Source: a virus
Lineage: Duplodnaviria; Heunggongvirae; Uroviricota; Caudoviricetes
Reading direction: 5' to 3' (one strand)
Virus record (IMG/VR): IMGVR_UViG_2718218361_000001
Length of the DNA: 18,292 nt
Positions 1,881 to 18,292 of the stretch are shown one piece after another. The translations under genes were made by a program, and so were the position numbers. The first letter of the stretch is position 1. The number at the start of each line of letters is the position of its first letter. The notes below the pieces were generated by a model, which was not told where the DNA came from, did not search any database, and saw nothing but the letters and a program-made list of their open reading frames with translations.

Positions 1881-2285
1881 TGCCCAACAATGGGGGGACG
1901 AATGCTGTAAAAGTAAAACAATCTGCGATCTCAAAGTTATTGTGTGATTTTTATGTGAGCAGAAGATATTCATCAGAAACGATTATGTAAATCATTTTAT
2001 TTTGCCAACGGCCTCATTGTCGAAAGAAAAGAATACGCCCGTATTTCCTGAATGGATTGACTTTTTTATCCAACCACACTTCAGCGCACTGCGTTTAAAA
2101 AATGCCTCATTCTTATGCGGAATATCATCATTTCATCATGATGTCTTTGATGAGCGGTGAACACAATACACTTGCGCTGTCTCTTCAGGATGAATCCCCT
2201 GGTCTGGTGCCTGTGGGCTGATGTTGCAGCAGAGCTAAGGTCGCTTAAACGCTACTCAGTATTCACTTTTCAGAGGATGAAATTT

Positions 2286-5200
2286 ATGAACAGGACCAGT
2301 CCCCATTATTGTCGCCGCTCAGTACTTTCCTTATTGATATCTGCCTTGATATATGCCCCGCCTGGGATGACGGCCTTCACTCCTGATGTTATTGGTGTGG
2401 TAAACGATGAGACTGTAGATGGCAGCCAAAGAGTAGATGAACGAGGTACAACAAATAACACTCATATTATCAACCATGGCCAGCAGAATGTTCATGGCGG
2501 GGTATCTAATGGAAGTCTTATTGAATCGGGTGGATATCAAGATGTAGGAAGTCATAACAATTTTGTGGGGCAGGCTAATAATACAACCATTAACGGAGGA
2601 AGACAGACAATTCATGACGGGGGCATTTCCACCGGTACGATAATCGACAGTGGCAATCAGGACGTTTATACAGGTGGTATCAGCAATGGAACGACAATTA
2701 AGGGTGGTAATTCACACATAAGTGGGGGGACTGCGAATGGAACCATCATTGATGGTGGAGGGCAGAAAGTAACAACTCAGGGGCATGTTGATGGTACAAC
2801 GATAAATAAGTCCGGTTATCAGGACATCACGCAAGGAAGTATTGCAACGAACACAATCATAAATGGTGGACGACAGTATGTTGAACAGAGCACAGTAGGA
2901 ACAACCACCATTAAAAATGGCGGTGAGCAAAGAGTATATGAAAGCCATGCGCTGGACACGACGATTGAAGGTGGAACTCAGTCTCTGAATAATAAGTCAA
3001 CGGCAAAAATACTCAGATCTATTCTGGTGGTACGCAAATTGTTGATTACACCAGCTCCTCGGATGTTATTGAAGTTTATTCCGGTGGCGTGCTTGATGTT
3101 AGTGGTGGTACGGCAACAAATGTTACCCAGCACGATGGTGCAATTTTAAAAACAAACACTAACGGTACGACGGTGAGCGGTACGAATAGTGAAGGTGCAT
3201 TCTCCATCCACAATCACGTGGCAGACAATGTGTTGCTGGAAAACGGTGGTCATTTAGACATAAACGCATATGGTTCGGCAAACAAGACGATTATTAAAGA
3301 TAAAGGAACAATGTCAGTTTTAACGAATGCTAAAGCTGATGCGACCCGAATAGATAACGGCGGGGTAATGGATGTTACCGGAAACGCGACCAATACCATA
3401 ATCAATGGTGGTACACAGAATATTAATAATCATGGTATTGCCACGGGTACCAATATCAACGGCGGAACGCAAAATATCAAGAGCGGCGGGAAAGCTGACA
3501 CGACAATTATATCCTCCGGGAGCCGGCAGGTTGTTGAGAAAGATGGTACGGCAACTGGCAGCAATATTAGCGCCGGAGGCTCGCTGATTGTCTATACCGG
3601 TGGTATTGCACATGGGGTTAACCAGGAGACGGGCAGTGCTTTAGTTGCCAACACGGGCGCAGGGACTGATATTGAAGGATACAACAAGCTCTCTCACTTC
3701 ACTATTACCGGAGGGGAGGCTAATTATGTTGTGCTGGAAAATACCGGCGAACTGACGGTAGTGGCTAAAACCTCGGCGAAAAATACTACCGTTGATGCTG
3801 GCGGTAAGCTGATTGTCCAGAAGGAGGCTAAAACAGATACCACCAGACTTAATAATGGTGGCGTTCTGGAGGTTCAGGACGGTGGTGAGGCTAAGCATGT
3901 TGAGCAACAATCCGGCGGCGCATTAATTGCTTCCACAACTTCCGGAACCCTTATCGAAGGAACCAACAGTTATGGTGATGCTTTCTACATCAGGAATTCA
4001 GAAGCTAAAAATGTAGTGCTGGAAAACGCTGGCTCATTAACAGTCGTCACTGGTTCCCGGGCAGTTGATACGATTATTAATGCCAACGGCAAAATGGATG
4101 TTTATGGAAAAGATGTTGGCACTGTACTCAATAGTGCTGGCACCCAAACAATATATGCCAGTGCCACTTCTGATAAAGCAAATATCAAAGGTGGCAAGCA
4201 AACGGTATATGGATTAGCCACTGAGGCAAATATCGAAAGTGGTGAACAAATTGTTGATGGTGGGTCAACAGAGAAAACACACATCAATGGTGGCACGCAA
4301 ACCGTTCAGAATTATGGTAAGGCAATCAATACCGATATCGTCTCTGGCCTACAACAAATTATGGCAAACGGGACAGCGGAAGGTTCCATTATTAATGGGT
4401 GTTCACAGGTAGTTAATGAGGGCGGTCTGGCTGAAAACTCGGTGCTTAATGACGGCGGCACACTCGATGTGCGGGAGAAAGGCAGCGCAACGGGGATACA
4501 GCAGAGTAGCCAGGACGCTTTGGTTGCAACCACCAGGGCGACGCGGGTCACAGGAACACGCGCGGATGGCGTCGCGTTCAGCATCGAGCAGGGTGCGGCG
4601 AACAATATCCTGCTGGCAAATGGCGGCGTGTTAACCATGGAGTCAGACACCTCTTCTGACAAAACACAGGTCAATACGGGCGGACGGGAGATCGTCAAAA
4701 CAAAAGCCACTGCGACAGGCACGACGCTCACCGGCGGCGAACAAATCGTCGAGGGGGTGGCGAATGAGACAACGATTAACGACGGCGGAATACAAACAGT
4801 TTCAGCTAACGGAGAGGCAATAAAAACAAAGATCAATGAAGGCGGTACGCTGACAGTTAACGATAATGGCAAAGCGACAGATATCGTCCAGAACAGCGGT
4901 GCCGCTCTCCAGACGAGCACGGCTAACGGTATTGAAATCAGCGGTACTCACCAGTACGGCACTTTTTCCATTTCCGGCAATTTAGCGACCAATATGTTGC
5001 TGGAAAATGGCGGTAATTTATTGGTATTAGCAGGTACCGAAGCTCGCGACTCCACGGTTGGCAGCGGTGGAGCCGCCAACGGCAGTTATCGCAGCAACGG
5101 GCTGGGCGGTCACATTGAAACCGGGATGCGATTTACCGATGGTAACTGGAACCTGACGCCGTATGCATCGTTAACGGGGGTTCACCGCTGATAACCCTGA

Positions 5201-5546
5201 ATATCATTTATCCAATGGCATGGAATCGAAATCAGTCGATACCCGCAGTTTATATCGTGAACTGGGTGCAACGCTGAGTTACAACATGCGTCTGGGGAAC
5301 GGTATGGAAGTTGAGCCGTGGCTGAAGGCGGCTGTGCGCAAAGAATTTGTCGATGATAACCGGGTGAAAGTGAATAGTGACGGTAATTTCGTCAATGATT
5401 TGTCGGGCAGACGTGGAATATACCAGGCAGGTATTAAAGCCTCATTCAGCAGTACGTTAAGCGGGCATCTTGGGGTGGGGTATAGCCATGGTGCCGGTGT
5501 GGAATCCCCGTGGAACGGGGTAGCTGGTGTGAACTGGTCGTTCTGA
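2286..5546 (+). pseudogene. Autotransporter adhesin (AIDA-I/self-associating type) disrupted by frameshifts
   Basis: ATG 2286 with GAGGA 8 nt upstream and a signal-peptide-like N-terminus (MNRTSPHYCRRSVLSLLISALIYA). About 900 aa of degenerate passenger repeats (IxGGxQ, NGGxL) spread over three reading frames. Frame changes sit at an A5 tract (3005-3009) and a G5 tract (5176-5180). C-terminus ends in an aromatic-rich barrel-like segment ...GVNWSF, but the barrel part looks short. Confidence 0.65.
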
Positions 5547-5705: not shown

Positions 5706-5733
5706 TTGGTGGGCTGGCGGAGTATGAATTTGC
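5706..5733. repeat. Degenerate ssrA 3'-end copy; candidate distal att site of the satellite
   Basis: ttggtgg-gctggcgg-agtatgaatttgc resembles ttggtggagctggcgggagttgaacccgc at the ssrA 3' end, roughly 24 of 30 positions by eye. It lies just outside the left arm-type repeats. Confidence 0.45.
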
Positions 5734-5781: not shown

Positions 5782-5805
5782 GGTATACCTAAGCGTATAC
5801 CAATA
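5782..5805. repeat. Integrase arm-type-like repeats, left end of the satellite
   Basis: GGTATACCTAAGCGTATACCAATA matches CGTATACCTAAACGTATACCAATA at 17757-17780 at 22 of 24 positions. Contains two (G/C)GTATAC units 12 bp apart. Confidence 0.5.
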
Positions 5806-5897
5806 GCGGGGTGCAATACTTATTTAACTTAAAAAAAATCATCCCTAAATAGGTCGTTTTATATTCAAAAAACAAAAAAAATCTTTTTTAAATAAGT

Positions 5898-5975
5898 TGT
5901 TCACACTGTTCACTTAGGGTTTTTATCATTCAAAATCAAGGTAATAGAAGTTAACTGTATGGTGAAGAGTGAACA
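5898..5975. repeat. crr-like iteron cluster downstream of the primase gene
   Basis: TGTTCAC at 5898-5904 and 5907-5913, and inverted GTGAACA at 5969-5975. The P4 alpha-binding octamer is TGTTCACC (from memory). Confidence 0.5.
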
Positions 5976-6000
5976 GATAACTCTACATTCTTGCGCCAGC

Positions 6001-6026
6001 GAAAACAAAACCCGGCATCAGCCGGG
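6001..6026 (-). terminator. Rho-independent terminator for the primase operon
   Basis: CCCGGC-atca-GCCGGG hairpin (6011-6026) which on the minus strand is followed by TTTTGTTTTC, 12 nt after the primase stop codon (6038-6040). Confidence 0.65.
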
Positions 6027-6037
6027 TTAGTTGCAAA

Positions 6038-8371
6038 TTATTTTATTGTTGGCTCATCGCACTTGGGTAGCCAGTCTGCATTACTCTCTTCTTTTAAGGT
6101 GAGGTTAGTCTGCATTCCCTGATTAGTTCGCCGCTTCTCATAATGTAGCCCGTACTCCTTCAGCATAACTGGTAGCCCTTTGCCAAACATTGTCAGGCTG
6201 AGGGTATTTTTATAGCCATTAGCCTCCATGTATACGAGATAAGCATGGTAAAGGTATGTACGTGGCTGGCGCGGGACAATATTGGCGTTTCCCATAAACA
6301 TGCCGTTGGTGTCGGGTAATGCCTCAAGATAGCCACAAAAATCAAATGCTGGATCAGCATCACGCTTGATGGTGAGAGCCTCATCAGAATTCTGCTGCGA
6401 CTGAAGCAATGTTCTGGCACTCATCGGATCACTGAAACGCTGCATGAGCTGGCGAACAATCACAGCAAGTTCTTGAGCAATTTTATCTTTTAGCTGCGGA
6501 TCGCGTTCTTCCGGTGCTATCTGCTCAGGAAAATGCAGAATAACTCTCCGGCGAGACACACCACCACTGCGATCAGTGAAGCGCATAGGATTATTATTTA
6601 CGGCCAGGATAACCGCCGGAATATGTGTTGAATAAGCATTCTGATATTTGGGGTCCACAGATACTGCATCGCCACCGGTTATAGCCTTAAGCCCGGCGCC
6701 ATCGCCGCTCCACTTCTCCTGATCAGGCAGGCGAATAAGAGAAAAACCGATCAGAGCTGCACGTTCTCGCGGGGACTCCAGAGTTTCAATTGTCGCTGAG
6801 GTGGCGTTATCCTCTCCTGCAAGCATCGTTGCAATTTCAGCAAGGATACTTTTGCCACTTCCGCCAGGGCCAGTCACTTCCAGAAAGAGCTGCCAGTCAT
6901 AGCGGTTCGCCAGCACCATAAACAGCGCTGCGAGAATAATGTCGCGTTTTGCTGGCTTGCGCCCGGCTGCCCTGTCCAGCCAGCGCCAGAATGCCGGGGC
7001 ATGAGTTTCAAGCGTTTCCCCATTTACCGGTGGCGTGAAATCAACTTCACACAGGGTACGCAGCCACTTCTCTTTACAGTGCGGACTAAACAGCCCTGTT
7101 CGCGTATCGAGGACGCCATTACGAAAACCGATCAGATGACGTGCCGGATTTTGCTGCTGCGGAACAATTAACTTTAATGTTTCCACCAGTGAGGCAATCT
7201 TTCCTGAGGAAAACGGTGCACCGAGGCGCTGGAAAAGGGCTGCGACATCTCGGGCAAAATCAGACTGAGAAATCACTTTCCACGCCCCAGACTCATAGCG
7301 GGATAAAAGCTGCCCGTTCGGATCAACCGCCAGCGCATCCCTGTAATGCTCCCGAACCCTCTGAGCTTTTTCGCTGACACTCATCGCTGTGAATTCTGCT
7401 TCACTCATCGTGTCGAAAGGACTGGCGTTATGTGGCCTCAAAGCCTCAAGAATTGCCTTCCGGGTGGATTCCTCTCCGTAATGGGCAAGCGCATCATTCC
7501 AGTCACCAAAAACCGGTGGCAGCACAATGTCACACTGACACGCTTTTGCAGCAGCTTCAGCCCTGTTCTGGCCTGAACCATTCAGATCTCGGTCCGCTGC
7601 AATAATTAGCTGATACCCCGGATACTTGTTATGGGCAACGCTGGCCAGAGAAAGAAAGTTGACCGCCGAAAATGCCACCATGACGGCTTCTCCAGTCAGA
7701 TGATGAATGGTAAGCGCCGTGGCGTAGCCTTCCGTAATCCACATTCTTCTTACTGAACTCCCGCCCCCTTCTATCAGATGATAGGCCTCCTTAACCTGAC
7801 CTCCTTTAAGAAAACACTTGCTACCATTGCTACTGATAAGCTGAATATTCACCAGCTCCCCGTCAGCGTTATAGAGCGGGACGATCAAATCACCGGGGCG
7901 GAACATCACCCCACCGGTTTTATGAGCTGAAGTCAGCTCATGGCAAATATGTTCCGGGAAACCTTTATGTGTAAGATAAGTATTTCCGGCAGATTCGCGC
8001 GAGGCTTGCAGCAGTCGCGCGGCAAGTGCTGCCGCTGCATCTTTCCCGCTATTGGTATCGGCGGTTAACGTCCTGACTTCGGAATTAGCTATAGACAGGC
8101 CATGTGTCATTCCATGTATCCTGTCAGCTGCTTCACTGATATCCACATTCAGTGCCCTGGTGACAAGCGCTAAACCATCCCCGGCTCCGCACTGATTGCA
8201 GAACCATGTTCCACGTCCTTCCTGATCGTCGAAGCGAAAACGATCTTTACCGCCACAGACCGGACAAGGCTGATGGCGATTTTTCAATATATTCACGCCC
8301 AGCGCTGGCAGAATCTGAGCCCAGTGACCGCGGGCAGCCTTCACGGCCTGACTGACTTTCATTCCTGACAT
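6038..8371 (-). CDS. P4 alpha-type primase/helicase (phage/plasmid primase, P4 family), 777 aa
   Basis: ATG at 8371 with GAGGGAGAA 7 nt upstream. N-terminal zinc-binding CPVCGGKDRFRF...CNQCG, a primase-like central region, and Walker A GPGGSGKS in the C-terminal NTPase domain. Length equals P4 alpha as I recall it. The ORF track's upstream in-frame Met lacks an RBS. Confidence 0.9.
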   Translation of the reverse strand: MSGMKVSQAVKAARGHWAQILPALGVNILKNRHQPCPVCGGKDRFRFDDQEGRGTWFCNQCGAGDGLALVTRALNVDISEAADRIHGMTHGLSIANSEVRTLTADTNSGKDAAAALAARLLQASRESAGNTYLTHKGFPEHICHELTSAHKTGGVMFRPGDLIVPLYNADGELVNIQLISSNGSKCFLKGGQVKEAYHLIEGGGSSVRRMWITEGYATALTIHHLTGEAVMVAFSAVNFLSLASVAHNKYPGYQLIIAADRDLNGSGQNRAEAAAKACQCDIVLPPVFGDWNDALAHYGEESTRKAILEALRPHNASPFDTMSEAEFTAMSVSEKAQRVREHYRDALAVDPNGQLLSRYESGAWKVISQSDFARDVAALFQRLGAPFSSGKIASLVETLKLIVPQQQNPARHLIGFRNGVLDTRTGLFSPHCKEKWLRTLCEVDFTPPVNGETLETHAPAFWRWLDRAAGRKPAKRDIILAALFMVLANRYDWQLFLEVTGPGGSGKSILAEIATMLAGEDNATSATIETLESPRERAALIGFSLIRLPDQEKWSGDGAGLKAITGGDAVSVDPKYQNAYSTHIPAVILAVNNNPMRFTDRSGGVSRRRVILHFPEQIAPEERDPQLKDKIAQELAVIVRQLMQRFSDPMSARTLLQSQQNSDEALTIKRDADPAFDFCGYLEALPDTNGMFMGNANIVPRQPRTYLYHAYLVYMEANGYKNTLSLTMFGKGLPVMLKEYGLHYEKRRTNQGMQTNLTLKEESNADWLPKCDEPTIK

Positions 8372-8385
8372 GATGCAGTTCTCCC

Positions 8386-8709
8386 TCAGTGTAAAACTGG
8401 CTTTTTGATGTGACGGACGCATAACTCATCCATTACGGCTATTCCGAGCTGGGAGAGTGCGGGACAGGACATTAGAGGGCCGGATTCCATCAGGTCTGAA
8501 AGCAGGGCGCAGGCGATTTCCATGCCTTTTGTTTGCCCGTGCTGTCGCAGATAAAATCCTTCAAGCTCACGGGCAATAGCGGTTTCAATTTCATCCAGAG
8601 TCAGCTGCAGGTGGCGGTTTTGCTGATGGCAGGCACTCAGCCATGCGCAGGCTACCGCGCGGCGATACAACGCTACCCGAAGTGAAAGGGAAAGAGTGCG
8701 TGATTTCAT
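8386..8709 (-). CDS. Hypothetical protein (107 aa), immediately upstream of the primase
   Basis: ATG at 8709 with GGAGG 7 nt upstream. Start overlaps the stop of the preceding gene (ATGA). Stop lies 15 nt before the primase start. Confidence 0.6.
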
Positions 8710-8930
8710 TGCACCACCTCCATGTTCATCAGGTCATCCTGGCAACGTTGTACCACGCCATCAAGCTGCTCTGTCATCAGATAAATCAGGGAAACCAGTT
8801 GCTCACATTGAGCATTGGCAGGTTTTTCGTAGCAATCCTGAAGAACAGCCATTCCGGTGACAAGCTCCCCCACGTTACGAAGATGCTTCAGGCGGACAAT
8901 ATCGTCATAAGAGATTGCGGCGTGATTCAT
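8706..8930 (-). CDS. Hypothetical protein (74 aa)
   Basis: Internal ATG at 8930 with GGGAGG 7 nt upstream. Start overlaps the stop of the upstream 63-aa ORF. The longer ORF-track version (87 aa) lacks an RBS. Confidence 0.55.
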
Positions 8931-9121
8931 CACATCACCTCCCGGACAGGCAGGCGAGCAGCAAGGCAAAGCACATACTCATGGACCAGTGAAAGACGTG
9001 CATGATACTCATCGCTGGCGACAATACGCAGCATACTGATACGTGGTTTACGTTCTGCACGACGAACGGCGGCAAAAACAAATATAAATTGAGGATGTGA
9101 TGGGGCGAGGATCGTAGCCAT
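8930..9121 (-). CDS. Hypothetical small protein (63 aa), first gene of the coupled small-ORF cluster
   Basis: ATG at 9121 with GGAG 9 nt upstream. It is the C-terminal 63 codons of a 197-aa ORF whose upstream part has no RBS and a GC-rich, structured character. Confidence 0.4.
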
Positions 9122-9324
9122 AAGGGCAATCTCCAATAAGTAGCGGTTATTGCCACCACCAGAGCTGCAAATCTCATGGGTGATGGCCCGGACGGGGTTT
9201 GCAGTACCGGCCTTATTGGAAACCGGCCAGCCCGAAGGCTGCCCCGCCCGGACCACCATTATCTGACAGGAGCCACGGTGTAAGCACCACAGCCCGAAAA
9301 ATAGGTGTGCCTGAGCAACGACAT

Positions 9325-9346
9325 AAAAAAACACGCTCGACGCGTG
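9325..9346 (-). terminator. Candidate rho-independent terminator between the AlpA-like gene and the small-ORF/primase operon
   Basis: On the minus strand a CACGC-gtcga-GCGTG hairpin (9332-9346) is followed by a U7 run (A7 at 9325-9331 on plus). Stem is only 5 bp. Confidence 0.4.
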
Positions 9347-9474
9347 CTGTGTCGCCAATAAGTTACACGGGCTGCAAATCCCGGCTGCCGATTTTGCGGC
9401 AGCAGAAAAACTATAACTGGAAAGCTTGCCAGGACGCAAGCCACAAAAAAAGAGATGAGACTGCAAAGCCAGAT

Positions 9475-9735
9475 TCACGCATGGTCTCCTTGCTCGCGGG
9501 CTGCAATTCGCGCCGCCATCCATGCATTGACCTCCGACTGTACCCAGGCAACATTTTTTCCACCCAGGGAGATCTGCTGCGGGAAGGCATCACGGCTGAT
9601 AAGGTCGTAGATGGTTGAACGGGATAGCCCGCAAAGGTGCATCACTTCAGGTAATCGTATGAAGCGCTCCTGCTCAGTCGGAACCGGGAGCACCGGAGCA
9701 GCTGGTGCTGGGGTGGAAACGGAAATAGTATGCAT
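9475..9735 (-). CDS. AlpA/Vis-family phage transcriptional regulator (excisionase-like HTH), 86 aa
   Basis: ATG at 9735 with AGAGAGG 7 nt upstream. Translation [46 protein letters not shown] has the AlpA-type HTH signature. Confidence 0.8.
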
Positions 9736-10270
9736 CTCGCTACCTCTCTAATATGTTTTCAGTAGTCCGGACAATTCCATCCGGATTCAGGTAGTTCCTT
9801 ATTATGTTCATATAAGCGGCTCGCGCATGCTTTATTTAATTAGAGTGAAATATTGACTTCTCAAAAAATAAAACAGCTAAAAACCGGATAAAACGGACAA
9901 AAACAAATCATTCCCTCATGGAATATAATAAGGAGCTTCAAGAATAAAAAAGTCTATTACACCAAGCAGGATCGCCGCTCAAGTCTGTACCAGACCATAT
10001 CATTCCGGGCGTTACATCATAAGGATGAAAACAGCGCCGGAATAATAAAAGGGCCAAAAAACGTTCATAAAAAACAGTTCATCATATGTATTAATTAAGT
10101 TAATGGCTAAAAAAATTAAATTACCCGCATCCTTCCGAATTTATCCGGATGTGTTTAGTGAGCATCAGACAGATTCATTTTTATGGATATTTTCCTGAAA
10201 TGCAACCGAGTGTAGGGAGGTTAAGTGTTGAATTTTTAAACAGACATAAGACACATTTTATACTGTATAT

Positions 10271-10484
10271 TGAATAGTGTTGAATACGTGTGAATAGTGG
10301 TGAGGAATAAAAATCCAGTAATAAACTGAAATAAATATAGCGATTTATATGAAAAACAAATATAAGTTTAAATTTATCTCTGTGAACAGTCATGAACAGT
10401 AGATGACCACTTTTATTTAAACCCTACACTCCTTAACCACATGTATTTACTATTCTTTTATGAAAGTGAACAGTAGTGAATAGT
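10271..10484. repeat. ori-like iteron cluster in the AT-rich divergent region
   Basis: About seven copies of GTGAA(C/T)AGT at 10271, 10281, 10291, 10382, 10393, 10466, 10476. Their reverse complement contains TGTTCAC/TATTCAC, the same core as the repeats at 5898-5975. The two clusters are about 4.4-4.5 kb apart. Confidence 0.5.
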
Positions 10485-10549
10485 ATGTATTAAAGGAAGG
10501 GTGAAGATCAGACATGACACCTTTCTCTGGCTAGCCAGAACAAGGTCAT

Positions 10550-10567
10550 TGTTCAGTCACTGGCACA
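10550..10567 (+). promoter_or_regulatory. Candidate Ogr/Delta-dependent late promoter element (TGT-N12-ACA dyad) upstream of the Sid-like gene
   Basis: TGT(10550-10552)-tcagtcactggc-ACA(10565-10567), 73-90 nt upstream of the ATG at 10640. P2/P4 late promoters carry such a dyad near -55 (established knowledge). No clear -35; -10 is weak. Confidence 0.4.
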
Positions 10568-10639
10568 ATCCTCATCGGTAGTGCGCTTGTATGGGCACCG
10601 GCACAATTGACACAACAACAAAACACTACCGGAGCAGCC

Positions 10640-11392
10640 ATGACAACTGTTAACCAGATCCCTGATGCAAACATTACACCCTCCCTCCCACCGAAAATTC
10701 GCGAAGCGGTAGAAAAAGTTAAAGCAGCAAAAGCTGTCTGGCAGGAAGAACGGCGAATACAAACTGAAGCCGCTGCAATGACTGAAACTATCCGTAAACG
10801 TCAGGAAGATACAAAAACGGAGACGCAGGCGCTTAATGATGAATGGCGAAACCTGTTTCGTGAGAATCAGGGGAATATGACGCCACGAATGAAAAAACTG
10901 CGGGCAGAAATCGCCCTGGGACGCGAAACACTTGATGAGTTCGAAGATTTGCTTGAAGCTCACGCCGCAGAAAAAGAATTCCTGCCCTGGAAAACTGCGG
11001 ATGCTGCAAACCGCTACATCAGCGAACATAACCGGCTGATTGAAACTCATGCAGAGTGGCTCTGGAATGAGTTTATGAAGGAACACGGCCAGAAACTTAT
11101 TCAGATCCTTGGATTGCTGAAAATGACTCTGGGGCGAAGCGCTTCTTCCGTTATCGGCGTAGTTCATACCGTAAACGACCCCGAAAGTGTGCTGAAGCAA
11201 TTTATCAGCGAGCAACTCACCGCTCCGGCACTGTCCTGTAACGTATCTTCAACGGATGTTATTGCCCTGCCGGGGATTAGCATTTATGCGGACGATAAAG
11301 CCCTACAGGATGCCAGACAATCACCCAGCCCTGCAGCGCGTTCCCGGATGCTTAAACAGCGTGACATGGTTAAAGGGGAAGAGAAGGGATGA
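10640..11392 (+). CDS. Sid/Psu-family protein, candidate capsid size-determination (Sid-like), 250 aa
   Basis: ATG at 10640 with GGAG 5 nt upstream (ORF-track start 10607 is a TTG without RBS). First gene of the late operon as in P4. Shares the NEFMKEHGQKL block with the Psu-like product (ENFMSEHGNAL) and MTPRMKKLRAEIA with the paralog at 12237 (VTPEMKALRAEYL). Stop overlaps the next start (ATGA). Confidence 0.7.
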   Translation: MTTVNQIPDANITPSLPPKIREAVEKVKAAKAVWQEERRIQTEAAAMTETIRKRQEDTKTETQALNDEWRNLFRENQGNMTPRMKKLRAEIALGRETLDEFEDLLEAHAAEKEFLPWKTADAANRYISEHNRLIETHAEWLWNEFMKEHGQKLIQILGLLKMTLGRSASSVIGVVHTVNDPESVLKQFISEQLTAPALSCNVSSTDVIALPGISIYADDKALQDARQSPSPAARSRMLKQRDMVKGEEKG

Positions 11393-11943
11393 ATCCTGGA
11401 AACATTACTAAGGAAGCTCTCAACAACTATCGCGCGGAGATAAAAAGCTGGCTGACACTACGTAATGTGCAAAGTACCAGCCAACTTCGTCTGGCGGCTC
11501 TGCTGGATACTGAAGAAAAACCGGCAGCATATGCCAGCCAGCTTGAGAATCTTCGTGAGCGTCTTGCTCTCCTCGAATGGCAGATTAACTGCGCCGCTAG
11601 GGACGGTCTTTATGCTCACCAGATTGTGCTGGAAAGCTGTGTTACAAGCGCAACTGAAAACTTCATGAGCGAGCATGGTAATGCACTCACTGACGCTCTG
11701 GCTCCTTTTCTTTGCGCACCATACGGGCTTGAGGCGGCAATGAAAATATTACGCACCGCTGTAGTCCGACAAACCGAAATCCGTACTCCTGTAATTTCAG
11801 CAGCATATAAGAGCGTTATCGACGAAACCGGATTAACGGTGGATGCATCAATGCGAGCTGATGCTTCAGCCATTTTCACCCCGGCAAAACATAAAGTTTT
11901 TCTGGCCCGCCTCAACAGGCTTAATGAAAAAGGAGGGTACTGA
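11389..11943 (+). CDS. psu: Psu-like protein (polarity suppression / capsid decoration family), 184 aa
   Basis: ATG at 11389 preceded by a purine-rich stretch. Blocks EHGNALTDALAP and FTPAKHKVFLAR resemble my recollection of P4 Psu (QHGTALAAALAP, FTPAQNMIFSRK). Size close to P4 Psu (190 aa). Confidence 0.75.
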   Translation: MNPGNITKEALNNYRAEIKSWLTLRNVQSTSQLRLAALLDTEEKPAAYASQLENLRERLALLEWQINCAARDGLYAHQIVLESCVTSATENFMSEHGNALTDALAPFLCAPYGLEAAMKILRTAVVRQTEIRTPVISAAYKSVIDETGLTVDASMRADASAIFTPAKHKVFLARLNRLNEKGGY

Positions 11944-11944
11944 T

Positions 11945-12217
11945 ATGGCCCTGAAATGTCCTGAATGTGGCACGGTCGCACACGCCAGAACCAGCGCCTA
12001 TGAAGCTCCATCGGTTAAACGCTCATGGTATCAGTGCCAGAATCTTGAATGCTCCTGCACATTTACTGCCCTGGAAAGTGTGGACACGATAATTATGAAG
12101 CCCCATAAACCAGTGGCGCCTGAACCTGAATCACAGAGCGATTCTCTTGTACGTCAGCCGCATACACTGGGCCGCTACGGTTCAGCCTGTACCCTTAAAG
12201 ACCGTCATGCACAATAA
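11945..12217 (+). CDS. Ogr/Delta-family zinc-finger late transcription activator, 90 aa (single domain)
   Basis: ATG at 11945 with GGAGG 8 nt upstream, 1 nt after the Psu stop. CPECGTVAHARTS...WYQCQNLECSCTFTALESV matches the Ogr/Delta signature (recalled P2 Ogr: CPLCQHAAHARTS...YHQCQNVNCSATFITYESV). Confidence 0.85.
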   Translation: MALKCPECGTVAHARTSAYEAPSVKRSWYQCQNLECSCTFTALESVDTIIMKPHKPVAPEPESQSDSLVRQPHTLGRYGSACTLKDRHAQ

Positions 12218-12236
12218 ATTGGGGAGGAACAAAAAT

Positions 12237-13049
12237 ATGACAGAACAACAATTGACGGAAAACCAGATTCAGGCCGCAACCGGACACGTAGTAACACTCC
12301 TCGCGAGGGCAAAAAAACCGCTTCAGGATGCGGATTGGCTCATGAATTTGCCTGCAAATGAAATAGCCCGCGAGACGGAAAAACTGACAAAAAGCCTTTC
12401 CTCCGACTGGCAGTCCCGAATTATCGACCTTTACCAAAAAATGCAGGCCTGGGTGGAGGCCAGACAGGCCGAAGAAGCAGCCATTGAGAACCTTCGGGCT
12501 CTGCGCCAGCATCAGACCGAAACTGAGCAGGCCAGCAAAGACAATCGGGCGCAGTTCAGGGAACTGCTTAACCAGAGCGGCGGCATCGTAACGCCGGAGA
12601 TGAAAGCTCTCCGGGCTGAGTATCTGGAACAACAGGAAACAGCCACAGAACTCGCCGGGCTGATTACTGAAAAAGAAGATCAGCTGCCGGTACTGGCTCA
12701 AGCGACCACGCGTAAAGCAAACGTCTATATAAACTGCCATCATGGCATCACTGAGGAGCGTATCGATGAGCTTTTACGAGACTTTTTTATTTTCCACGGT
12801 GCCGAATTGAGCGGCCTGCTCAGGATGAAGTACAGACAATTTGAGCGATATAGCTCAGCACATATACCGGGCATTATTGAAGGCACAAATGATGCAGATA
12901 CGCTGTATCGTGAATTTATCCTGAATCTAATGCTGAAGTGGACGAATGAAATATTACCGTTAAGATTCCGGGACGACGTGATGAGCCTGACCGGTTCAGC
13001 TCCGGTATCAGGATCGCATGACGACAGAAAAAAAAGTAAGCTGTTTTGA
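12237..13049 (+). CDS. Second Sid/Psu-family paralog, 270 aa, function unassigned
   Basis: ATG at 12237 with GGGGAGG 9 nt upstream (ORF-track start 12147 lacks an RBS). Coiled-coil-like; shares sequence blocks with the Sid-like gene at 10640. Followed by a strong terminator. Confidence 0.7.
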   Translation: MTEQQLTENQIQAATGHVVTLLARAKKPLQDADWLMNLPANEIARETEKLTKSLSSDWQSRIIDLYQKMQAWVEARQAEEAAIENLRALRQHQTETEQASKDNRAQFRELLNQSGGIVTPEMKALRAEYLEQQETATELAGLITEKEDQLPVLAQATTRKANVYINCHHGITEERIDELLRDFFIFHGAELSGLLRMKYRQFERYSSAHIPGIIEGTNDADTLYREFILNLMLKWTNEILPLRFRDDVMSLTGSAPVSGSHDDRKKSKLF

Positions 13050-13073
13050 CCTGAACAGAAAAGCTCACTTAAG

Positions 13074-13095
13074 CCCGGCCAGTGCCGGGTTTTTT
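13074..13095 (+). terminator. Rho-independent terminator of the late operon
   Basis: CCCGGC-cagt-GCCGGG hairpin (13074-13089) followed by T6 (13090-13095), 25 nt after the stop at 13047-13049. Confidence 0.7.
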
Positions 13096-13236
13096 GATGT
13101 CTATAGCCTGAGTGCATGTCTATACTGCATGAAATCGCATGACTTTATGCACTTGCATTTTTACTTCCCAGACCAGATAAGGCGCGGTTTAGAGCCTATC
13201 ATGCAACTGCATGAAAACCACTCCCTAAAGCGGGCA

Positions 13237-13255
13237 GGCGTGGCGGGGCTACGAG
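13237..13255. other. Candidate cos-like site (P2/186-family cohesive-end-like sequence)
   Basis: GGCGTGGCGGGG matches the first 12 nt of the P2/186-type 19-nt cohesive end as I recall it (GGCG[A/T]GGCGGGGAAAGCA-). The remaining 7 nt diverge. Position between the late operon and the cargo matches where cos sits in P4. Confidence 0.3.
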
Positions 13256-13629
13256 CGCGCGCTTCGAGGTAAAAGGATGCCGAGCATACAACTCATCGAT
13301 AATGCGGTAGGGTAAATAAGGGGGGGGGCTTGCTATTTTGTACGCTGTAAGGAAGCAAAAGGAAGTCAGTGAGCTAGGGTTAAACAACCCAGCGTATGAG
13401 GTTAAAGTCTAAAATTGAGAACAGCCGTATATGGAGTAATAAAAAGGTGAGGTTGAATCTTTGAGAGGCTGTTTATCAAGGCATAAACCTCTATAGGATG
13501 CATGGTTTTGCATGTGTTTAAATGTTACGCCAATTTAGGCCAACGCCTTTAGGGCGTGGCCTATTTCCATCTTTGCAACTCCATCAAATGCGTCTTCATG
13601 ATGAAGATGAGGATTAGGCGGAAATTGAA

Positions 13630-15399
13630 TTAAAGACGCCACAGACTCTCAAGATCGAGCGTGTCACTTTGCGGTGCACTTTCTTCAGAAAGTCTATCGA
13701 TCTGCACAAGAAGCGGAGTATGAAATGCTGTTCCCGAAATTATGCATGCGCCTGGAGGAAGGGTAGGTATAAGTGTTCTGGATGCTGCATCTAATGTACT
13801 TAAGGTGTTTTTAAGAAGGTAAAGGTCGTTTTCATTTACCAAGCGATGTATGAAATAATTATGAAGTTGTGATACGATTGTTGGCGATATATCAAATGGT
13901 CGCTGGCTTGAAATAGTTACAAAATAACCAAACTTCCTACCTTCCTTTATTATCTCCTCAAATAATTCAAGTCGATAATCTTTCCAAGTCTCAGCCTCCC
14001 TCACAGAGCTTTCGGAAAGAATGTTGTGAGCTTCATCTATTATTAAATGAAAACTTTCTTTTTTGTTGTCCGAAGACTTGTGTTCTATGAAGGAACATTT
14101 CGCAATCATCATCGGAATCGTTTTTTTTATGGTTTGATTGCATTCTTTGAGAGAGATTATGGATATTGGTTTATAGCTTTGTTGAGCGCGGTTTATTTCT
14201 ATAACCTTTGCTAGAGATGAGCTCATTGCTATTATTTTGTTTATCAAAGGATATATGTGATCATATTGAACATAGTTTCTGGATACAGAATTTATTAATT
14301 GCAGTGTTGCACGTATAGCAATTTCATCAAATACACTAGTAACATGGAATTGGCTATTGTATGTTGCTTGAGTGTGTTTTAAAACTTCAGCAGTAGTGTC
14401 AAGCCAACCCGAAGGGTGTGTATATTTTTCTTGGTTTGAATGCCAAGTAAAGAGAGAGAGTTCATCTCGTATCTTTTGTTGATCGTTCTCATCGAAATAA
14501 GGCAGTAGACTTTTTAATAAATTAACGGTCTCTTTGTGAGGATTTGTTCCAAACATTATTTCAATTGTTCTTTTTAAATATGTGTTAAGATCGTCATCAT
14601 ACTTTAACTTGCTCTTTATTAAATGTGTAAGAAATGGTTTTTGTGTTTTCTCGGTTGCAGAGAATAAAACTGACAACAGTTCATCATCCCAAAATTCTTT
14701 TTCACCGAAATATATCTTATCACCATCTTTTTTTGTGCTAAGTTTTGTGGAGTGACATAGTTCTGGAAAGGAATTCTCTAATGTCCCATATTCACCATTG
14801 AAATCAATCAATACGAAATTTGACTTATCGATCAATTGTTGTTTGTTTTCAATTCTATTGAAAAGTGATTGATATATTTTTGCTAGAGTATTTGACTTTC
14901 CACTTCCTGTATTTCCAAAAATACCTATATGAGAATTAAAAACACCGTTTATGGGAATGTTTATTGGTAATTCCTCTAGCATGGATTTGCCAATGTTAAT
15001 GAGCGGAGTTTTTGTATTTTTGCTAAAACTATAGATTTCAGATATTTTATCATCCGAAATTAAATAAAGTCTATCATTTATCATTGGGAGATATTTTATT
15101 CCAGAGTAGAATTTACCCTCAAAAAAATACCCGAGAATATTTAGTTCAACGAATCTTTCATATTTTTTCTGCTCAATGTCATCAGTACGAATGTTAAAGT
15201 TCTCAACAATTTCCTCACCTATGATCTTACCTACAATGTCCTGATAACCTTTACGAACTAATACAAATTCATTTATTGATATACCACGCAATATTTTTCC
15301 ATTGTGGAAGTATGTTGATTGGAACAAGTCATGGTTTATTTTTGCTTTGACAGTGGTTCCTTTTACTTGGGTCACTTTACCTATATTCAGTTCGTCCAT
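13630..15399 (-). CDS. HerA-like (FtsK/HerA superfamily, DUF87-type) ATPase, 589 aa; second gene of the cargo pair
   Basis: ATG at 15399 with AGGAGA 9 nt upstream (ORF-track start 15408 is a TTG). Walker A GIFGNTGSGKSNT and Walker B HLIIDEAHN; N-terminal beta-rich region before the ATPase core. About 28-30% GC by hand count. Overlaps the upstream gene by 13 nt. Confidence 0.85.
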   Translation of the reverse strand: MDELNIGKVTQVKGTTVKAKINHDLFQSTYFHNGKILRGISINEFVLVRKGYQDIVGKIIGEEIVENFNIRTDDIEQKKYERFVELNILGYFFEGKFYSGIKYLPMINDRLYLISDDKISEIYSFSKNTKTPLINIGKSMLEELPINIPINGVFNSHIGIFGNTGSGKSNTLAKIYQSLFNRIENKQQLIDKSNFVLIDFNGEYGTLENSFPELCHSTKLSTKKDGDKIYFGEKEFWDDELLSVLFSATEKTQKPFLTHLIKSKLKYDDDLNTYLKRTIEIMFGTNPHKETVNLLKSLLPYFDENDQQKIRDELSLFTWHSNQEKYTHPSGWLDTTAEVLKHTQATYNSQFHVTSVFDEIAIRATLQLINSVSRNYVQYDHIYPLINKIIAMSSSLAKVIEINRAQQSYKPISIISLKECNQTIKKTIPMMIAKCSFIEHKSSDNKKESFHLIIDEAHNILSESSVREAETWKDYRLELFEEIIKEGRKFGYFVTISSQRPFDISPTIVSQLHNYFIHRLVNENDLYLLKNTLSTLDAASRTLIPTLPPGACIISGTAFHTPLLVQIDRLSEESAPQSDTLDLESLWRL

Positions 15400-16502
15400 G
15401 TTACCCAATCTCCTGTTTCTGATTTGAAAATTCTATCAATAAAAGTATCAAAAGAAATTTTATGATCAACTTCTTTAGGATAAATGAAGGTTATTCTGGG
15501 GTCATTTACTGTATTATTTATATCTTGCTTGCTTTGATTGTTGTAGCAAAAAACAAATACTTTTAGTGTTGGATTACTTAAAGATCTTTTTATTATTTCA
15601 AGAATGTGCTCGTCTTGAAATGAAAACCCAAAACAAATTAATACAGTTTGTGGTTTCTCTAATTCATAGCTTAATAATCTTAAGCTCTGATAGTAGTGTT
15701 GCTGAAATACTGTTTCTGAAAACTTTTCTTTGGTCGGATTAACTATCGCGAGTGAGTTATAGTATGATTTGAATTCTTCAAGAGAATTTTGGTCATTAGC
15801 ATTTAAATCCAAGTAATCAGCAAGATCATCGTTAGTTGTATTTAGGGTAATTACTAAATCATCTATGGTTTTATCTGTCTCTAAATTTATTAATTCAGGT
15901 GAAACGCTTGGGTAGTTGATGCTTATTGTTTCATTCTCATCTCTTTTCCATGAGACCGAACCATGCATTTTAATTAAATTGATAGTTGGTAACTCATGTT
16001 TGTACATATCATGAGTTCCTTGATGCCAAGTAGTAATATGAAAATTACTAATGTTTAATCTTCTGTTTTTAAAACCTATAGCACCATCATTGAAATGGAA
16101 TGTTTTCTTAGCTAATGCATTGTCTGCTGCTGTTTCAAAAAAAAGATCATAGTTAGTTGTGAAAATATTGGCTCGTCTTATTTGATTGGAACCTTTTTTT
16201 TCTAATAAAGTAACAAGTTCATCTAGAAAATCTGTATAGCTATTTATTGTTGAGGTGTATTTTTTGTTTTCTACACTTGGCTCAATGCAAAATGTTTTTC
16301 TAATGATTTTATTGAAATAAGAACATAAGATAAAATCCTTAACATCGATACAATCTTTATGCGTTAATAATGTCTCATAAGTGGTGTTTTCAGCAAGCCA
16401 CAGCGTTGGTATATACGATGCTGAAGCTCCTGAGCCAAATAGAAAGTTAATATTTTTATCATAAATATTTGATGCTTTGCATGGGAATTCTCTCGTGCTC
16501 AT
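15387..16502 (-). CDS. SIR2-like (sirtuin-fold, predicted NADase) protein, 371 aa; first gene of the cargo pair
   Basis: ATG at 16502 with AAGGA 8 nt upstream, only 10 bp after the integrase stop. Motifs FLFGSGASAS (glycine-rich loop), TTNYD and MHGS (His-Gly) are typical of SIR2-family domains. AT-rich like its partner. Confidence 0.85.
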   Translation of the reverse strand: MSTREFPCKASNIYDKNINFLFGSGASASYIPTLWLAENTTYETLLTHKDCIDVKDFILCSYFNKIIRKTFCIEPSVENKKYTSTINSYTDFLDELVTLLEKKGSNQIRRANIFTTNYDLFFETAADNALAKKTFHFNDGAIGFKNRRLNISNFHITTWHQGTHDMYKHELPTINLIKMHGSVSWKRDENETISINYPSVSPELINLETDKTIDDLVITLNTTNDDLADYLDLNANDQNSLEEFKSYYNSLAIVNPTKEKFSETVFQQHYYQSLRLLSYELEKPQTVLICFGFSFQDEHILEIIKRSLSNPTLKVFVFCYNNQSKQDINNTVNDPRITFIYPKEVDHKISFDTFIDRIFKSETGDWVTWTN

Positions 16503-16512
16503 TTTTATATCC

Positions 16513-17706
16513 TTACTTGCTATTCACTATGAAATTGCCCCACCAATTCATAAGGCCCTTTCTTTTTTCAAGGTAAGTGGAACGATTGTATGCTCTGCGA
16601 ACCTCATTCTTCTCAATGTGAGCAAGCGCTGCTTCAATCACATCTGAATTTAAACCAGCTTCATTCATTGCTGTACTCGCTATAGAGCGTAAACCATGTG
16701 CAACTAATTTACCCCCATATCCAATCCGTTTTAAAGCAGCATTTGCCGTCTGGCTATTCATTGGTTGCTTTGGGTCATTCCGACTCGGAAAAACATGTTC
16801 ACGATGCGCACTGATAGGCTTCATAACATCAAGAATCTCTAATGCCTGAAGAGATAGTGGAACTATGTGCTCGCGCTTAGCCTTCATACGTTCGGCTGGA
16901 ATGGTCCAGAGCTTTGCTTCGAGATCGATCTCTGCCCACCGAGTACCAGATGCTTCAGAAGGACGCACAAGGGTCAGAAGCTGCCATTCAATGAGACAGC
17001 GAGTCGTAACAGATAGATTTGACATTACTAGAGAACGCATCAGCTTTGGTAATTCTTCTGGCCGAAGCGTCGGCATATTTTGTTTTTTTGGCTTTTCAAA
17101 GGCCATTCCAACACCTGATGCTGGGTTTGCATCAATCAGACCAGTGTTTACGGCATAAATCATTATCTCGTTAATACGCTGCACCAGTCGACGTACCGTC
17201 TCAAGCGCTCCACGAGCTTTTATTGGCTCAAGGGCTTCAACCAATGTTCGTGCTTTGATTTGCTGAACAGGGATTTCACCGATTGCAGGAAATACGTCTT
17301 TCTCCAGTGAGCGCCAAATGTCTTTTGCGTAGTCAGGGGTAACGCTTTTGCTTTTTAGCTTGAACCAGTTAGCGGCGACCGTTGAAAAAATACTTTCCAG
17401 AGCGATTTGCTGCTCTTCCTCTGCGGCTTCGGCTTGAATTTGTGGGTCGATTTTGTTGGCTAGTAAAGCAAGGTAATCCGCTCTTAGACTTCGAGCATCA
17501 GCAAGTGAAAGGGAGGGGAAGGCTCCGAGCCCCATCATGGTCCGCTGCTTTGTTGCCGGACGTAGATAGCGAAAGCGCCATAGTTTCTTGCCGCTGGTTT
17601 TCACTAGCAGGAAAAGTCCATCGCCATCATGCAGCGTTAGATCCTTATCGATTGCTTTTGCGCGCAGAACTTCGGTGTTGGTCAGGGGGCGTGTTGTCCG
17701 TGCCAC
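16513..17706 (-). CDS. int: P4-type tyrosine integrase (IntA-like), 397 aa
   Basis: GTG start at 17706 with AAGGAG 8 nt upstream. N-terminus MARTTRPLT...DGDGLFLLV and C-terminal HGLRSIAST...VRRAYNRSTY (H-x-x-R and catalytic Tyr) resemble my recollection of CP4-57 IntA. Lies next to the ssrA 3' end in the same orientation. Confidence 0.92.
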   Translation of the reverse strand: MARTTRPLTNTEVLRAKAIDKDLTLHDGDGLFLLVKTSGKKLWRFRYLRPATKQRTMMGLGAFPSLSLADARSLRADYLALLANKIDPQIQAEAAEEEQQIALESIFSTVAANWFKLKSKSVTPDYAKDIWRSLEKDVFPAIGEIPVQQIKARTLVEALEPIKARGALETVRRLVQRINEIMIYAVNTGLIDANPASGVGMAFEKPKKQNMPTLRPEELPKLMRSLVMSNLSVTTRCLIEWQLLTLVRPSEASGTRWAEIDLEAKLWTIPAERMKAKREHIVPLSLQALEILDVMKPISAHREHVFPSRNDPKQPMNSQTANAALKRIGYGGKLVAHGLRSIASTAMNEAGLNSDVIEAALAHIEKNEVRRAYNRSTYLEKRKGLMNWWGNFIVNSK

Positions 17707-17728
17707 TGTGGCCGCTCCTTCATGAGTT

Positions 17729-17775
17729 GGTATACGCTTTTAGGTATACATCCTACCGTATACCTAAACGTATAC
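17729..17775. repeat. Integrase arm-type-like repeat cluster between int and ssrA
   Basis: Four (G/C)GTATAC units starting at 17729, 17743, 17757 and 17769 (spacing 14, 14, 12 bp). The last two are duplicated at 5782-5805. Confidence 0.5.
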
Positions 17776-17890
17776 CAATAATCACAGGATTTAGCCGGAT
17801 ATTGTCGGACAACGACAGACACAAAAAAGCCCGCAGGGCTTATGCCGTGCGGGCTTTCTGTACTTCACCGGACGAATCCGGATCATTATT

Positions 17891-18253
17891 TGGTGGAGCT
17901 GGCGGGAGTTGAACCCGCGTCCGAAATTCCTACATCCTCGGTACTACATGCTTAGTCAGTCTTTACATTCGCTTGCCAGCTGCGGACGGACACGCCACTA
18001 ACAAACTAGCCTGATTAAGTTTTAACGCTTCAACCCCAGGCAGGGCTTCCACGCGATCTCTTTTGGGTTTGACCTCTCTTGATCCCCGTCCTAAGAGCGG
18101 AGGCTAGGGAGAGAGGGCTCTAAGCAGGTTATTAAGCTGCTAAAGCGTAGTTTTCGTCGTTTGCGACTATTTTTTGCGGCTTTTTACGAGGCCAACCGCC
18201 CCTCGGCATGCACCTTGGGTTTCGCAAATCCCGTCGAATCCAGAATCAGCCCC
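17891..18253 (-). ncRNA. ssrA: tmRNA (SsrA), 363 nt
   Basis: Reverse complement begins GGGGCTGATTCTGGATTCGACGGG and ends GGTTCAACTCCCGCCAGCTCCACCA, matching E. coli ssrA as I recall it. Contains GCAAACGACGAAAACTACGCTTTAGCAGCTTAA, which encodes the ANDENYALAA tag peptide. Confidence 0.95.
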
Positions 18254-18292
18254 AATGTGTAAAGGTAAGTATACCAGATTTATGAGCGCCAT

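Follow-up and report, generated by a model that had tools for sequence, protein, structure and literature searches.

The 18,292-nucleotide (nt) stretch of DNA held as virus record IMGVR_UViG_2718218361_000001, which we call the window at its full length, contains two near-identical 24-base-pair (bp) sequences located close to opposite ends of a satellite element, and the question raised by this locus is what these sequences do and which protein recognizes them. The DNA of the window is that of Escherichia coli, being 100% identical to strain S21 across the stretches compared, and from left to right it holds ypjCB, a fragmented ypjA, the satellite and ssrA, the gene for transfer-messenger RNA (tmRNA). 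The element, a P4-like satellite of 12.2 kilobases (kb), is integrated at the 3' end of ssrA and has ypjA as its neighbour; P4-like satellites at this E. coli tmRNA hotspot have already been documented (PMC10121019). On the basis of sequence comparisons, we judge with a probability of roughly 0.85 that the repeats are arm-type binding sites for the satellite's own tyrosine integrase (Int), a member of the P4/CP4-57 family.

The two 24-mers, GGTATACCTAAGCGTATACCAATA (5782-5805) and CGTATACCTAAACGTATACCAATA (17757-17780), differ at positions 1 (G/C) and 12 (G/A), and thus at the 2 of 24 positions counted in an earlier interpretation made from the letters alone (the sequence-only reading); their coordinates and differences were confirmed by the sequence, a pattern search and shuffles. 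When a 23-nt pattern was allowed up to three mismatches, only these two sites were matched, against an expectation of 0.00 from 200 dinucleotide-preserving shuffles, and a repeat search of the window recovered the pair as a direct repeat (D9) of 96% identity with copies approximately 12 kb apart. The hexamer GTATAC occurs eight times in the window where 2.5 copies are expected, a count that no shuffle reached. Six of the eight are clustered (5783, 5795, 17730, 17744, 17758 and 17770), with a spacing of 12 bp in the left cluster and of 14, 14 and 12 bp in the right cluster. The presence of four (G/C)GTATAC units at the right end is therefore as the sequence-only reading described it, but their spacing, given there as roughly one helical turn, measures 12-14 bp, or 1.15-1.35 turns. 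The other two copies, a GTATAC at 6230 inside the alpha gene and a partnerless GTATACC at 18269-18275, just upstream of the ssrA 5' end and outside the element, are treated as chance occurrences.

Taken with its flanking bases, the right cluster consists of the units TTGGTATAC and TTAGGTATAC in one orientation, followed by GTATACCTAA and GTATACCAAT in the opposite orientation. On the distal arm, unit 1 (GTATACCTAA; 5783-5792, plus strand), a candidate Int arm-type site, is invariant in four diverged E. coli satellites, and unit 2 (GTATACCAAT; 5795-5804, plus strand) forms a 12-bp tandem with it that matches the P4 tandem at 4151-4174. On the int side, unit 1 (GTATACCAAT; 17770-17779, plus strand) lies 111 bp from the ssrA 3' end and forms a 12-bp tandem with unit 2 (GTATACCTAA; 17758-17767, plus strand), which is evident from the sequence, the pattern search and alignment. 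Two inverted units follow toward int. Unit 3 (TTAGGTATAC; 17740-17749, minus strand), identified from the sequence as the reverse complement of GTATACCTAA, is perfect in the window and degenerate in many relatives. Unit 4 (TTGGTATACg, the reverse complement of cGTATACCAA; 17726-17735, minus strand) is located 20 bp upstream of the int start codon and has a counterpart in P4 at 3915-3926. We also considered whether the left cluster might be a dyad-symmetric operator (TATTGGTATAC...GTATACCAATA), which would favour a dimeric regulator, and rejected it as the outer half is not conserved in relatives. Given that the base preceding the first distal GTATAC varies among G, C and T in these relatives, the palindrome in the window is incidental, and the conserved object is the direct 12-bp tandem of GTATACC(T/A)A(A/T).

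The gene adjoining the right cluster (16513-17706, minus strand) codes for the P4/CP4-57-family tyrosine integrase. Its protein carries an N-terminal arm DNA-binding domain (PF13356, Arm-DNA-bind_3; residues 8-94, E = 9e-21) as well as core-binding and catalytic domains (PF22022 and PF00589), and it belongs to the CP4-57 IntA family NF007246 with a score of 593.7 bits relative to a cut-off of 434. Relatives of the N-terminal domain include the structures 3ju0 and 3jtz. Translation of int starts at a GTG (17706) preceded by the Shine-Dalgarno sequence AAGGAG (17712-17717).

If the units are arm-type sites, they should flank a core at which the integrase acts, and the junctions of the element are informative in this regard. 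The tmRNA gene was located at 17891-18253 on the minus strand by ARAGORN and Rfam, and its 3' end (17891-17915, minus strand), as aligned with 5706-5730, forms the int-proximal junction and core (attL). The distal junction (attR; 5706-5730), recovered by local alignment with 17891-17915, is an imperfect copy of this ssrA end, TTGGTGG-GCTGGCGG-AGTaTGAA, and corresponds to psaA, a K-12 pseudogene located where CP4-57 ends. A search with 9-nt seeds found no perfect direct repeat of the ssrA end in the window; the distal copy has two 1-nt deletions, and was located by eye, by local alignment and by homology to K-12, which enters from the ypjA side and ends at 5730 on psaA. The four E. coli ssrA satellites part from one another right after this same position. 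The element spans from about 5706 to about 17897 (approximately 12.18 kb), and the crossover probably occurs at TTGGTGG (5706-5712), at or beside CCACCAA.

The imperfect copy (5706-5723; reverse complement ACTCCGCCAGCCCACCA) is identical in several genera (loci L010, L038, L060, L068, L085 and others), and 56-59 bp separate it from the distal tandem in Kluyvera, Citrobacter, Erwinia, Mixta and others. Because the same imperfect copy recurs at a constant distance across genera, it is an element-borne attP core rather than a decayed remnant of the host gene. In the window, the core-to-tandem gaps are approximately 56 bp on the distal side and 111 bp on the int side, such that the repeats are internal to both junctions, by about 55-75 bp on the left and about 111 bp on the right, and, in the excised circle, both unit clusters would flank the ssrA-derived core. 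The sequence-only reading used the repeats as an internal estimate of the satellite boundaries, and allowed that comparative genomics might map the true junction elsewhere. The junctions map just outside the repeats, where an arm-site function needs them to be; as an estimate of the boundaries, however, the repeats fall some 55-125 bp short of the true ends and do not stand at the ends of the element.

These positions also bear on the proposal that the two copies have no role in protein binding and are instead a duplicated attachment-site (att) core, forming a target-site direct repeat, or a duplication that arose by chance or persists as a relic. Direct repeats do normally mark the limits of integrated elements, and these copies share one orientation at a distance of approximately 12 kb, but the ssrA-derived core repeat has a different sequence and is located outside both copies, and the GTATACC units are distinct from the core and have no counterpart in ssrA. 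Moreover, the units recur within each copy at a 12-bp interval, are preserved unaltered where the DNA around them is scrambled and change in concert with the class of Int, and the pair was reproduced by no shuffle. We find this explanation scarcely credible.

The arrangement found in the window has a precedent in P4 itself, whose attP arm sequence repeats were reportedly described by Pierson and Kahn in 1987. The P4 record NC_001609 annotates 12-nt 'attP arm sequence repeats' (TTGGGGGCAYAT), of which an inverted copy (3915-3926) overlaps the int ATG, a tandem (3942-3965) lies 112 bp from the core (4078-4097) on the int side, and another tandem (4151-4174) lies 53 bp beyond the core, ahead of crr, the alpha terminator and alpha. 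The equivalent distances in the window are 111 and 56 bp. Common to both elements are the gene order (int, arm repeats, core, arm repeats, crr and alpha), the 12-bp tandems on both arms, the inverted copy at the int start and four CGGA boxes phased at 10 bp between the int-side tandem and the core. The two systems differ in unit sequence (TTGGGGGCAYAT in P4 versus TTGGTATACg/TTAGGTATAC in the window), in target gene (leuX versus ssrA) and in their inverted units, of which P4 has one, with an additional copy within int, and the window has two. Their Int N-terminal domains are only 36% identical.

Comparisons among relatives reveal how strongly the units are preserved. On the distal arm, the DNA of the four E. 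coli ssrA satellites is scrambled between the core copy and the alpha iterons except for the invariant sequence GTATACCTAAkCGTATACCAAT, the alpha iterons being conserved as well in the same alignment, and the distal tandem appears as a sharp phylogenetic footprint. On the int side, an alignment of 72 distinct regions from different species shows some of its strongest conservation at the tandem pair and at the inverted unit nearest int, and the inner inverted unit is often degenerate.

Relatives also reveal that the motif exists in more than one form. In E. coli KMi029 (L007), GTGTACC is present in all units of both arms. When 68 loci from different species are compared, 37 have only GTATACC in their int-side units, 29 have only GTGTACC and one is mixed, and unit 4 is conserved in 66 of the 68, always with the same class as the tandem; this unit is likely an autoregulatory site. 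The distal tandem, approximately 10-12 kb away, falls within the 10-kb flanks in only about 20 of 79 loci, the remainder being unscored, and it agrees in class with the int-side units in 22 of the 23 cases (Fisher p = 3e-5, uncorrected for relatedness of the loci). When the window and the GTDB species-representative loci are considered alone, the match gives p = 4e-4. The 16 Int positions that are most informative on motif class are all located in residues 4-102, and the class-specific residues of the N-terminal domain (GTATACC versus GTGTACC class) are T11N, V13I, A18P, L23F, M57N and A76D.

Several pairs of satellites separate the integrase from other proteins that might read the units. L004 and L007 have Vis proteins that are 100% identical and alpha proteins that are 95% identical, yet their motifs are different (GTATACC versus GTGTACC). 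Conversely, L003 has Vis and alpha proteins 99% identical to those of P4, yet it carries a window-type Int (91% in the N-terminal domain) together with GTATACC rather than the P4 repeat. Since the comparisons of L003, L004, L007 and P4 are all made within E. coli, a host factor is excluded. By these comparisons, the motif follows the N-terminal arm-binding domain of the integrase and not Vis, alpha or the host.

One alternative addressed by these pairs is that the units are binding sites of a Vis/AlpA-type excisionase, which in P4 binds attP between int and core and regulates int. The satellite does code for a homologue of this family of recombination directionality factors (RDFs; 9475-9735, minus strand), which matches PF05930 (Phage_AlpA, E = 3e-20) and is 64% identical to P4 Vis. 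RDFs are known to bind repeated att-arm sites, and P4 Vis bends att DNA and represses int. Nevertheless, the units differ between L004 and L007 and are unrelated between L003 and P4 where Vis is the same or nearly so, and no GTATACC-like unit was found in the promoter region of vis. RDFs recognize direct repeats with a period of about one helical turn on one arm, and P4 Vis also has sites at the promoter that it regulates; the GTATACC units, in contrast, are spaced at 12-14 bp, are partly inverted and occur on both arms. A better fit for Vis is provided by the four (C/A)(C/A)GGA-type boxes in exact 10-bp steps beside the int-side tandem (17786-17820, plus strand), which are conserved across the 72 loci and are candidate RDF sites. 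We therefore regard an excisionase as a quite improbable reader of the GTATACC units.

The CGGA boxes are located between the int-side tandem and the ssrA terminator (17827-17858, minus strand), an element-supplied feature that is conserved in the int-side alignment. P4 has four such boxes in the same place and phase (3973-4006), and TCCGGA-like boxes also occur upstream of vis in the window (approximately 9779-9800, 9885-9900 and 10120-10150, minus strand). The CGGA and TCCGGA boxes are probably sites for Vis, acting as excisionase or regulator, and would form a class apart from the GTATACC units.

The same pairs of satellites bear on the possibility that the units are replication elements, either alpha-associated or crr/ori-associated iterons, which would be found near the ends of the element only because crr abuts the attachment site. 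In keeping with this, the distal pair is approximately 95 bp from TGTTCAC iterons downstream of alpha. However, the repeats of L003 and P4 are wholly different despite alpha proteins of 99% identity, and the motif classes of L004 and L007 differ at 95% identity. The known alpha iteron, TGTTCAC (TGTTCACC-type octamers that alpha binds), is found apart from the units and is itself conserved, CP4-57 in K-12 has the same arm layout without an alpha gene, and the second cluster of units is at the int start, far from ori and crr. The iterons adjacent to the distal arm (5898-5904 and 5907-5913, with an inverted copy at 5969-5975) are crr-like, being recognized by their sequence, their conservation in the alignment and a position like that of the P4 crr type-1 repeats. 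This TGTTCAC set (5898-5975) is a replication element beside the distal arm and is separate from the Int sites, and a replication role for the GTATACC units is in our judgement very improbable indeed.

A host nucleoid protein such as IHF or Fis, or another chromosomal regulator, would likewise have to account for the differences among satellites of one species. IHF and Fis take part in P4-type recombination, and there is an IHF site in the P4 int regulatory region. Within E. coli, however, the motif differs by element (GTATACC, GTGTACC, GGSCCCA and GGGGGCA) in a manner that tracks the integrase of each, and an IHF consensus overlapping the units was not found. It is hard to conceive that the units serve a host protein. 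The arm-type layout on both sides of an att core that was proposed by the sequence-only reading is thus supported at every point on which a prediction could be made at the sequence level, namely the PF13356 domain of Int, the flanked core, the P4-like layout, the footprint and the covariation.

These features can be assembled into a model for integrase-binding attP. In the excised circle, the order would be alpha, the crr iterons, the distal tandem of GTATACCTAA and GTATACCAAT, a spacer of approximately 56 bp that is 84% A+T, and the core formed by the ssrA 3'-end copy; attP would then continue with the ssrA terminator, the four phased CGGA boxes, the int-side tandem of GTATACCTAA and GTATACCAAT, the two inverted copies, and the Shine-Dalgarno sequence and GTG of int. 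The Int N-terminal domain (residues approximately 8-94) is predicted to bind 10-bp units of the form GTATACC(T/A)A(A/T), and the C-terminal domains would bind and cut the core. Accessory proteins (Vis and probably IHF) would bend the intervening DNA, so that a single Int could bridge arm and core and create an intasome for both integration and excision. The int-side units are 20-75 bp upstream of the GTG start and beside the AAGGAG ribosome-binding site. Their overlap with the int promoter/ribosome-binding-site region would allow them to serve as an operator for autorepression by Int, as reported for P4: two papers (PMC2951348 and PMC7286903), which cite Piazzolla 2006 and Pierson & Kahn 1987, state that P4 Int represses its own promoter by binding DNA directly, close to where int transcription starts.

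Several observations weigh against this assignment or parts of it, and should be kept in mind. The single discordant locus, L057 of Citrobacter amalonaticus (approximately 17425-18000), has GTGTACC on the int side and GTATACC on the distal side; it sits in a truncated and rearranged array, in which a truncated second int-side region follows. In addition, the int-side sites are only 20-75 bp from the codons for the Int N-terminal domain. Because the sites adjoin these codons, the class association on the int side could reflect linkage alone, and the distal arm is the only unlinked test. With regard to autoregulation, a sigma-70 promoter scan upstream of int gave none at threshold, and the best candidate chosen manually, TTGGTA-N17-TAGGAT, scores 8/12, for which reasons this step of the model stands on weaker ground. 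Finally, no IHF consensus within one mismatch was found in either arm.

In Kluyvera sichuanensis (L010, approximately 20278-20860), two tandem islands are present at ssrA, each with its own motif class and a matching Int N-terminal domain. A GTATACC-class island is followed by a core copy and terminator, and then by a GTGTACC-class arm and integrase.

We tentatively raise the possibility that the GTATACC and GTGTACC classes, which share one core site, are orthogonal 'address codes' of ssrA-targeting integrases. If this doubtful proposal were true, tandem islands at one ssrA site, such as those of L010, would assemble their own intasomes and excise independently, without cross-excision or fusion. 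On this view, specificity would be switched by exchanging one purine for the other in the arm site, and this switch would shape how satellites compete for one hotspot.

A close point of comparison outside the P4-like satellites is CP4-57 of E. coli K-12 (IntA/AlpA), which shares with the window the insertion in ssrA, the imperfect distal copy psaA and the integrase family NF007246. Its arm layout is also that of the window, each arm having a tandem pair with a 12-bp period. Specifically, TTTAGGCCCATT and GATAGGCCCAAC are joined in tandem at the intA ATG, where an inverted copy is also present, and TTTAGGACCAAC and AATGGGACCAAA form the tandem near psaA. Unlike the units of the window, those of CP4-57 are TAGGCCCA/TAGGACCA, with GGSCC in both arms, and the Int N-terminal domains of the two are 55% identical. 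CP4-57 is not a P4-like satellite, as it is devoid of alpha, sid, delta and psu genes.

Further parallels are the attL of KplE1/CPS-53, acted on by IntS and TorI, and the lambda Int system. In both, arm-type sites are bound by the N-terminal domain of a heterobivalent tyrosine recombinase, and in KplE1/CPS-53 the int promoter overlaps attL, so that Int and the RDF repress int. These systems differ from that of the window in integrase lineage, site consensus, and the number and arrangement of sites. Binding has been demonstrated experimentally for KplE1 and lambda, whereas the sites in the window are predicted from sequence comparisons.

The best-supported interpretation is that the units together would serve as arm sites for the branch of P4-family integrases that is specific to ssrA. 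We consider the finding correct but ordinary, in that the understanding of such systems is unchanged by it. What is mildly novel is that two arm-site/N-domain specificity classes exist with one core site and are able to coexist in tandem arrays. The exact ends and the cis-acting recombination sites are now given for a P4-like satellite that carries defence genes at the tmRNA hotspot of E. coli, and the P4 attP architecture is found to hold across the ssrA-specific integrase clade in many genera of the Enterobacterales. This conserved architecture, in which each arm carries a 12-bp tandem at a set distance from the core and the int start has inverted copies, could be used for the automatic delimiting of such islands. 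Given that the two natural arm-site/N-domain specificities differ by one base, they could also aid the engineering of orthogonal integrases.

Further features were identified in the remainder of the satellite. The alpha primase-helicase (6038-8422, minus strand) is recognized by the Pfam domains Zn_Ribbon_Prim, Toprim_3, D5_N and Pox_D5, and the hairpin of the alpha terminator was found at 6009-6028 by a terminator scan. Other genes code for a DUF5375 protein, an Icd-like protein, and sid-like, psu and delta products. Rfam models match at 9176-9416 on the minus strand for C4 antisense RNA (86 bits), isrK (73 bits) and the a1b1 target (49 bits), and this RNA set is the P4 CI-RNA immunity module. 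An additional TGTTCAC cluster (10373-10485), which is ori-like and includes a direct repeat spaced at 84 bp (D5), is located between vis and sid.

The cargo (13630-16502, minus strand) lies between int and the psu/delta/sid block, and includes genes for a SIR2-family protein and a HerA-like ATPase. Matches to the NCBIfam models SIR2_antiphage and HerA_antiphage are weak and below cut-off, and the pair is consistent with an anti-phage SIR2-HerA system occupying the P4 hotspot already known for defence genes. At this place, satellites that share the integrase have other cargo, including a restriction endonuclease, a Hachiman-like HamA/helicase pair, and an ATPase with DUF4435. Downstream of delta, a 300-residue open reading frame (ORF; 12147-13049, plus strand), annotated as a 'hypothetical protein' (813 nt) in strain S21, gave no match to Pfam or NCBIfam.

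Outside the satellite, the autotransporter gene ypjA (2157-5546) is split into several ORFs, and is frameshifted or partial in the annotation of strain S21. A separate fragment of ypjA at 5220-5546 codes for a 108-residue portion of the beta-barrel.

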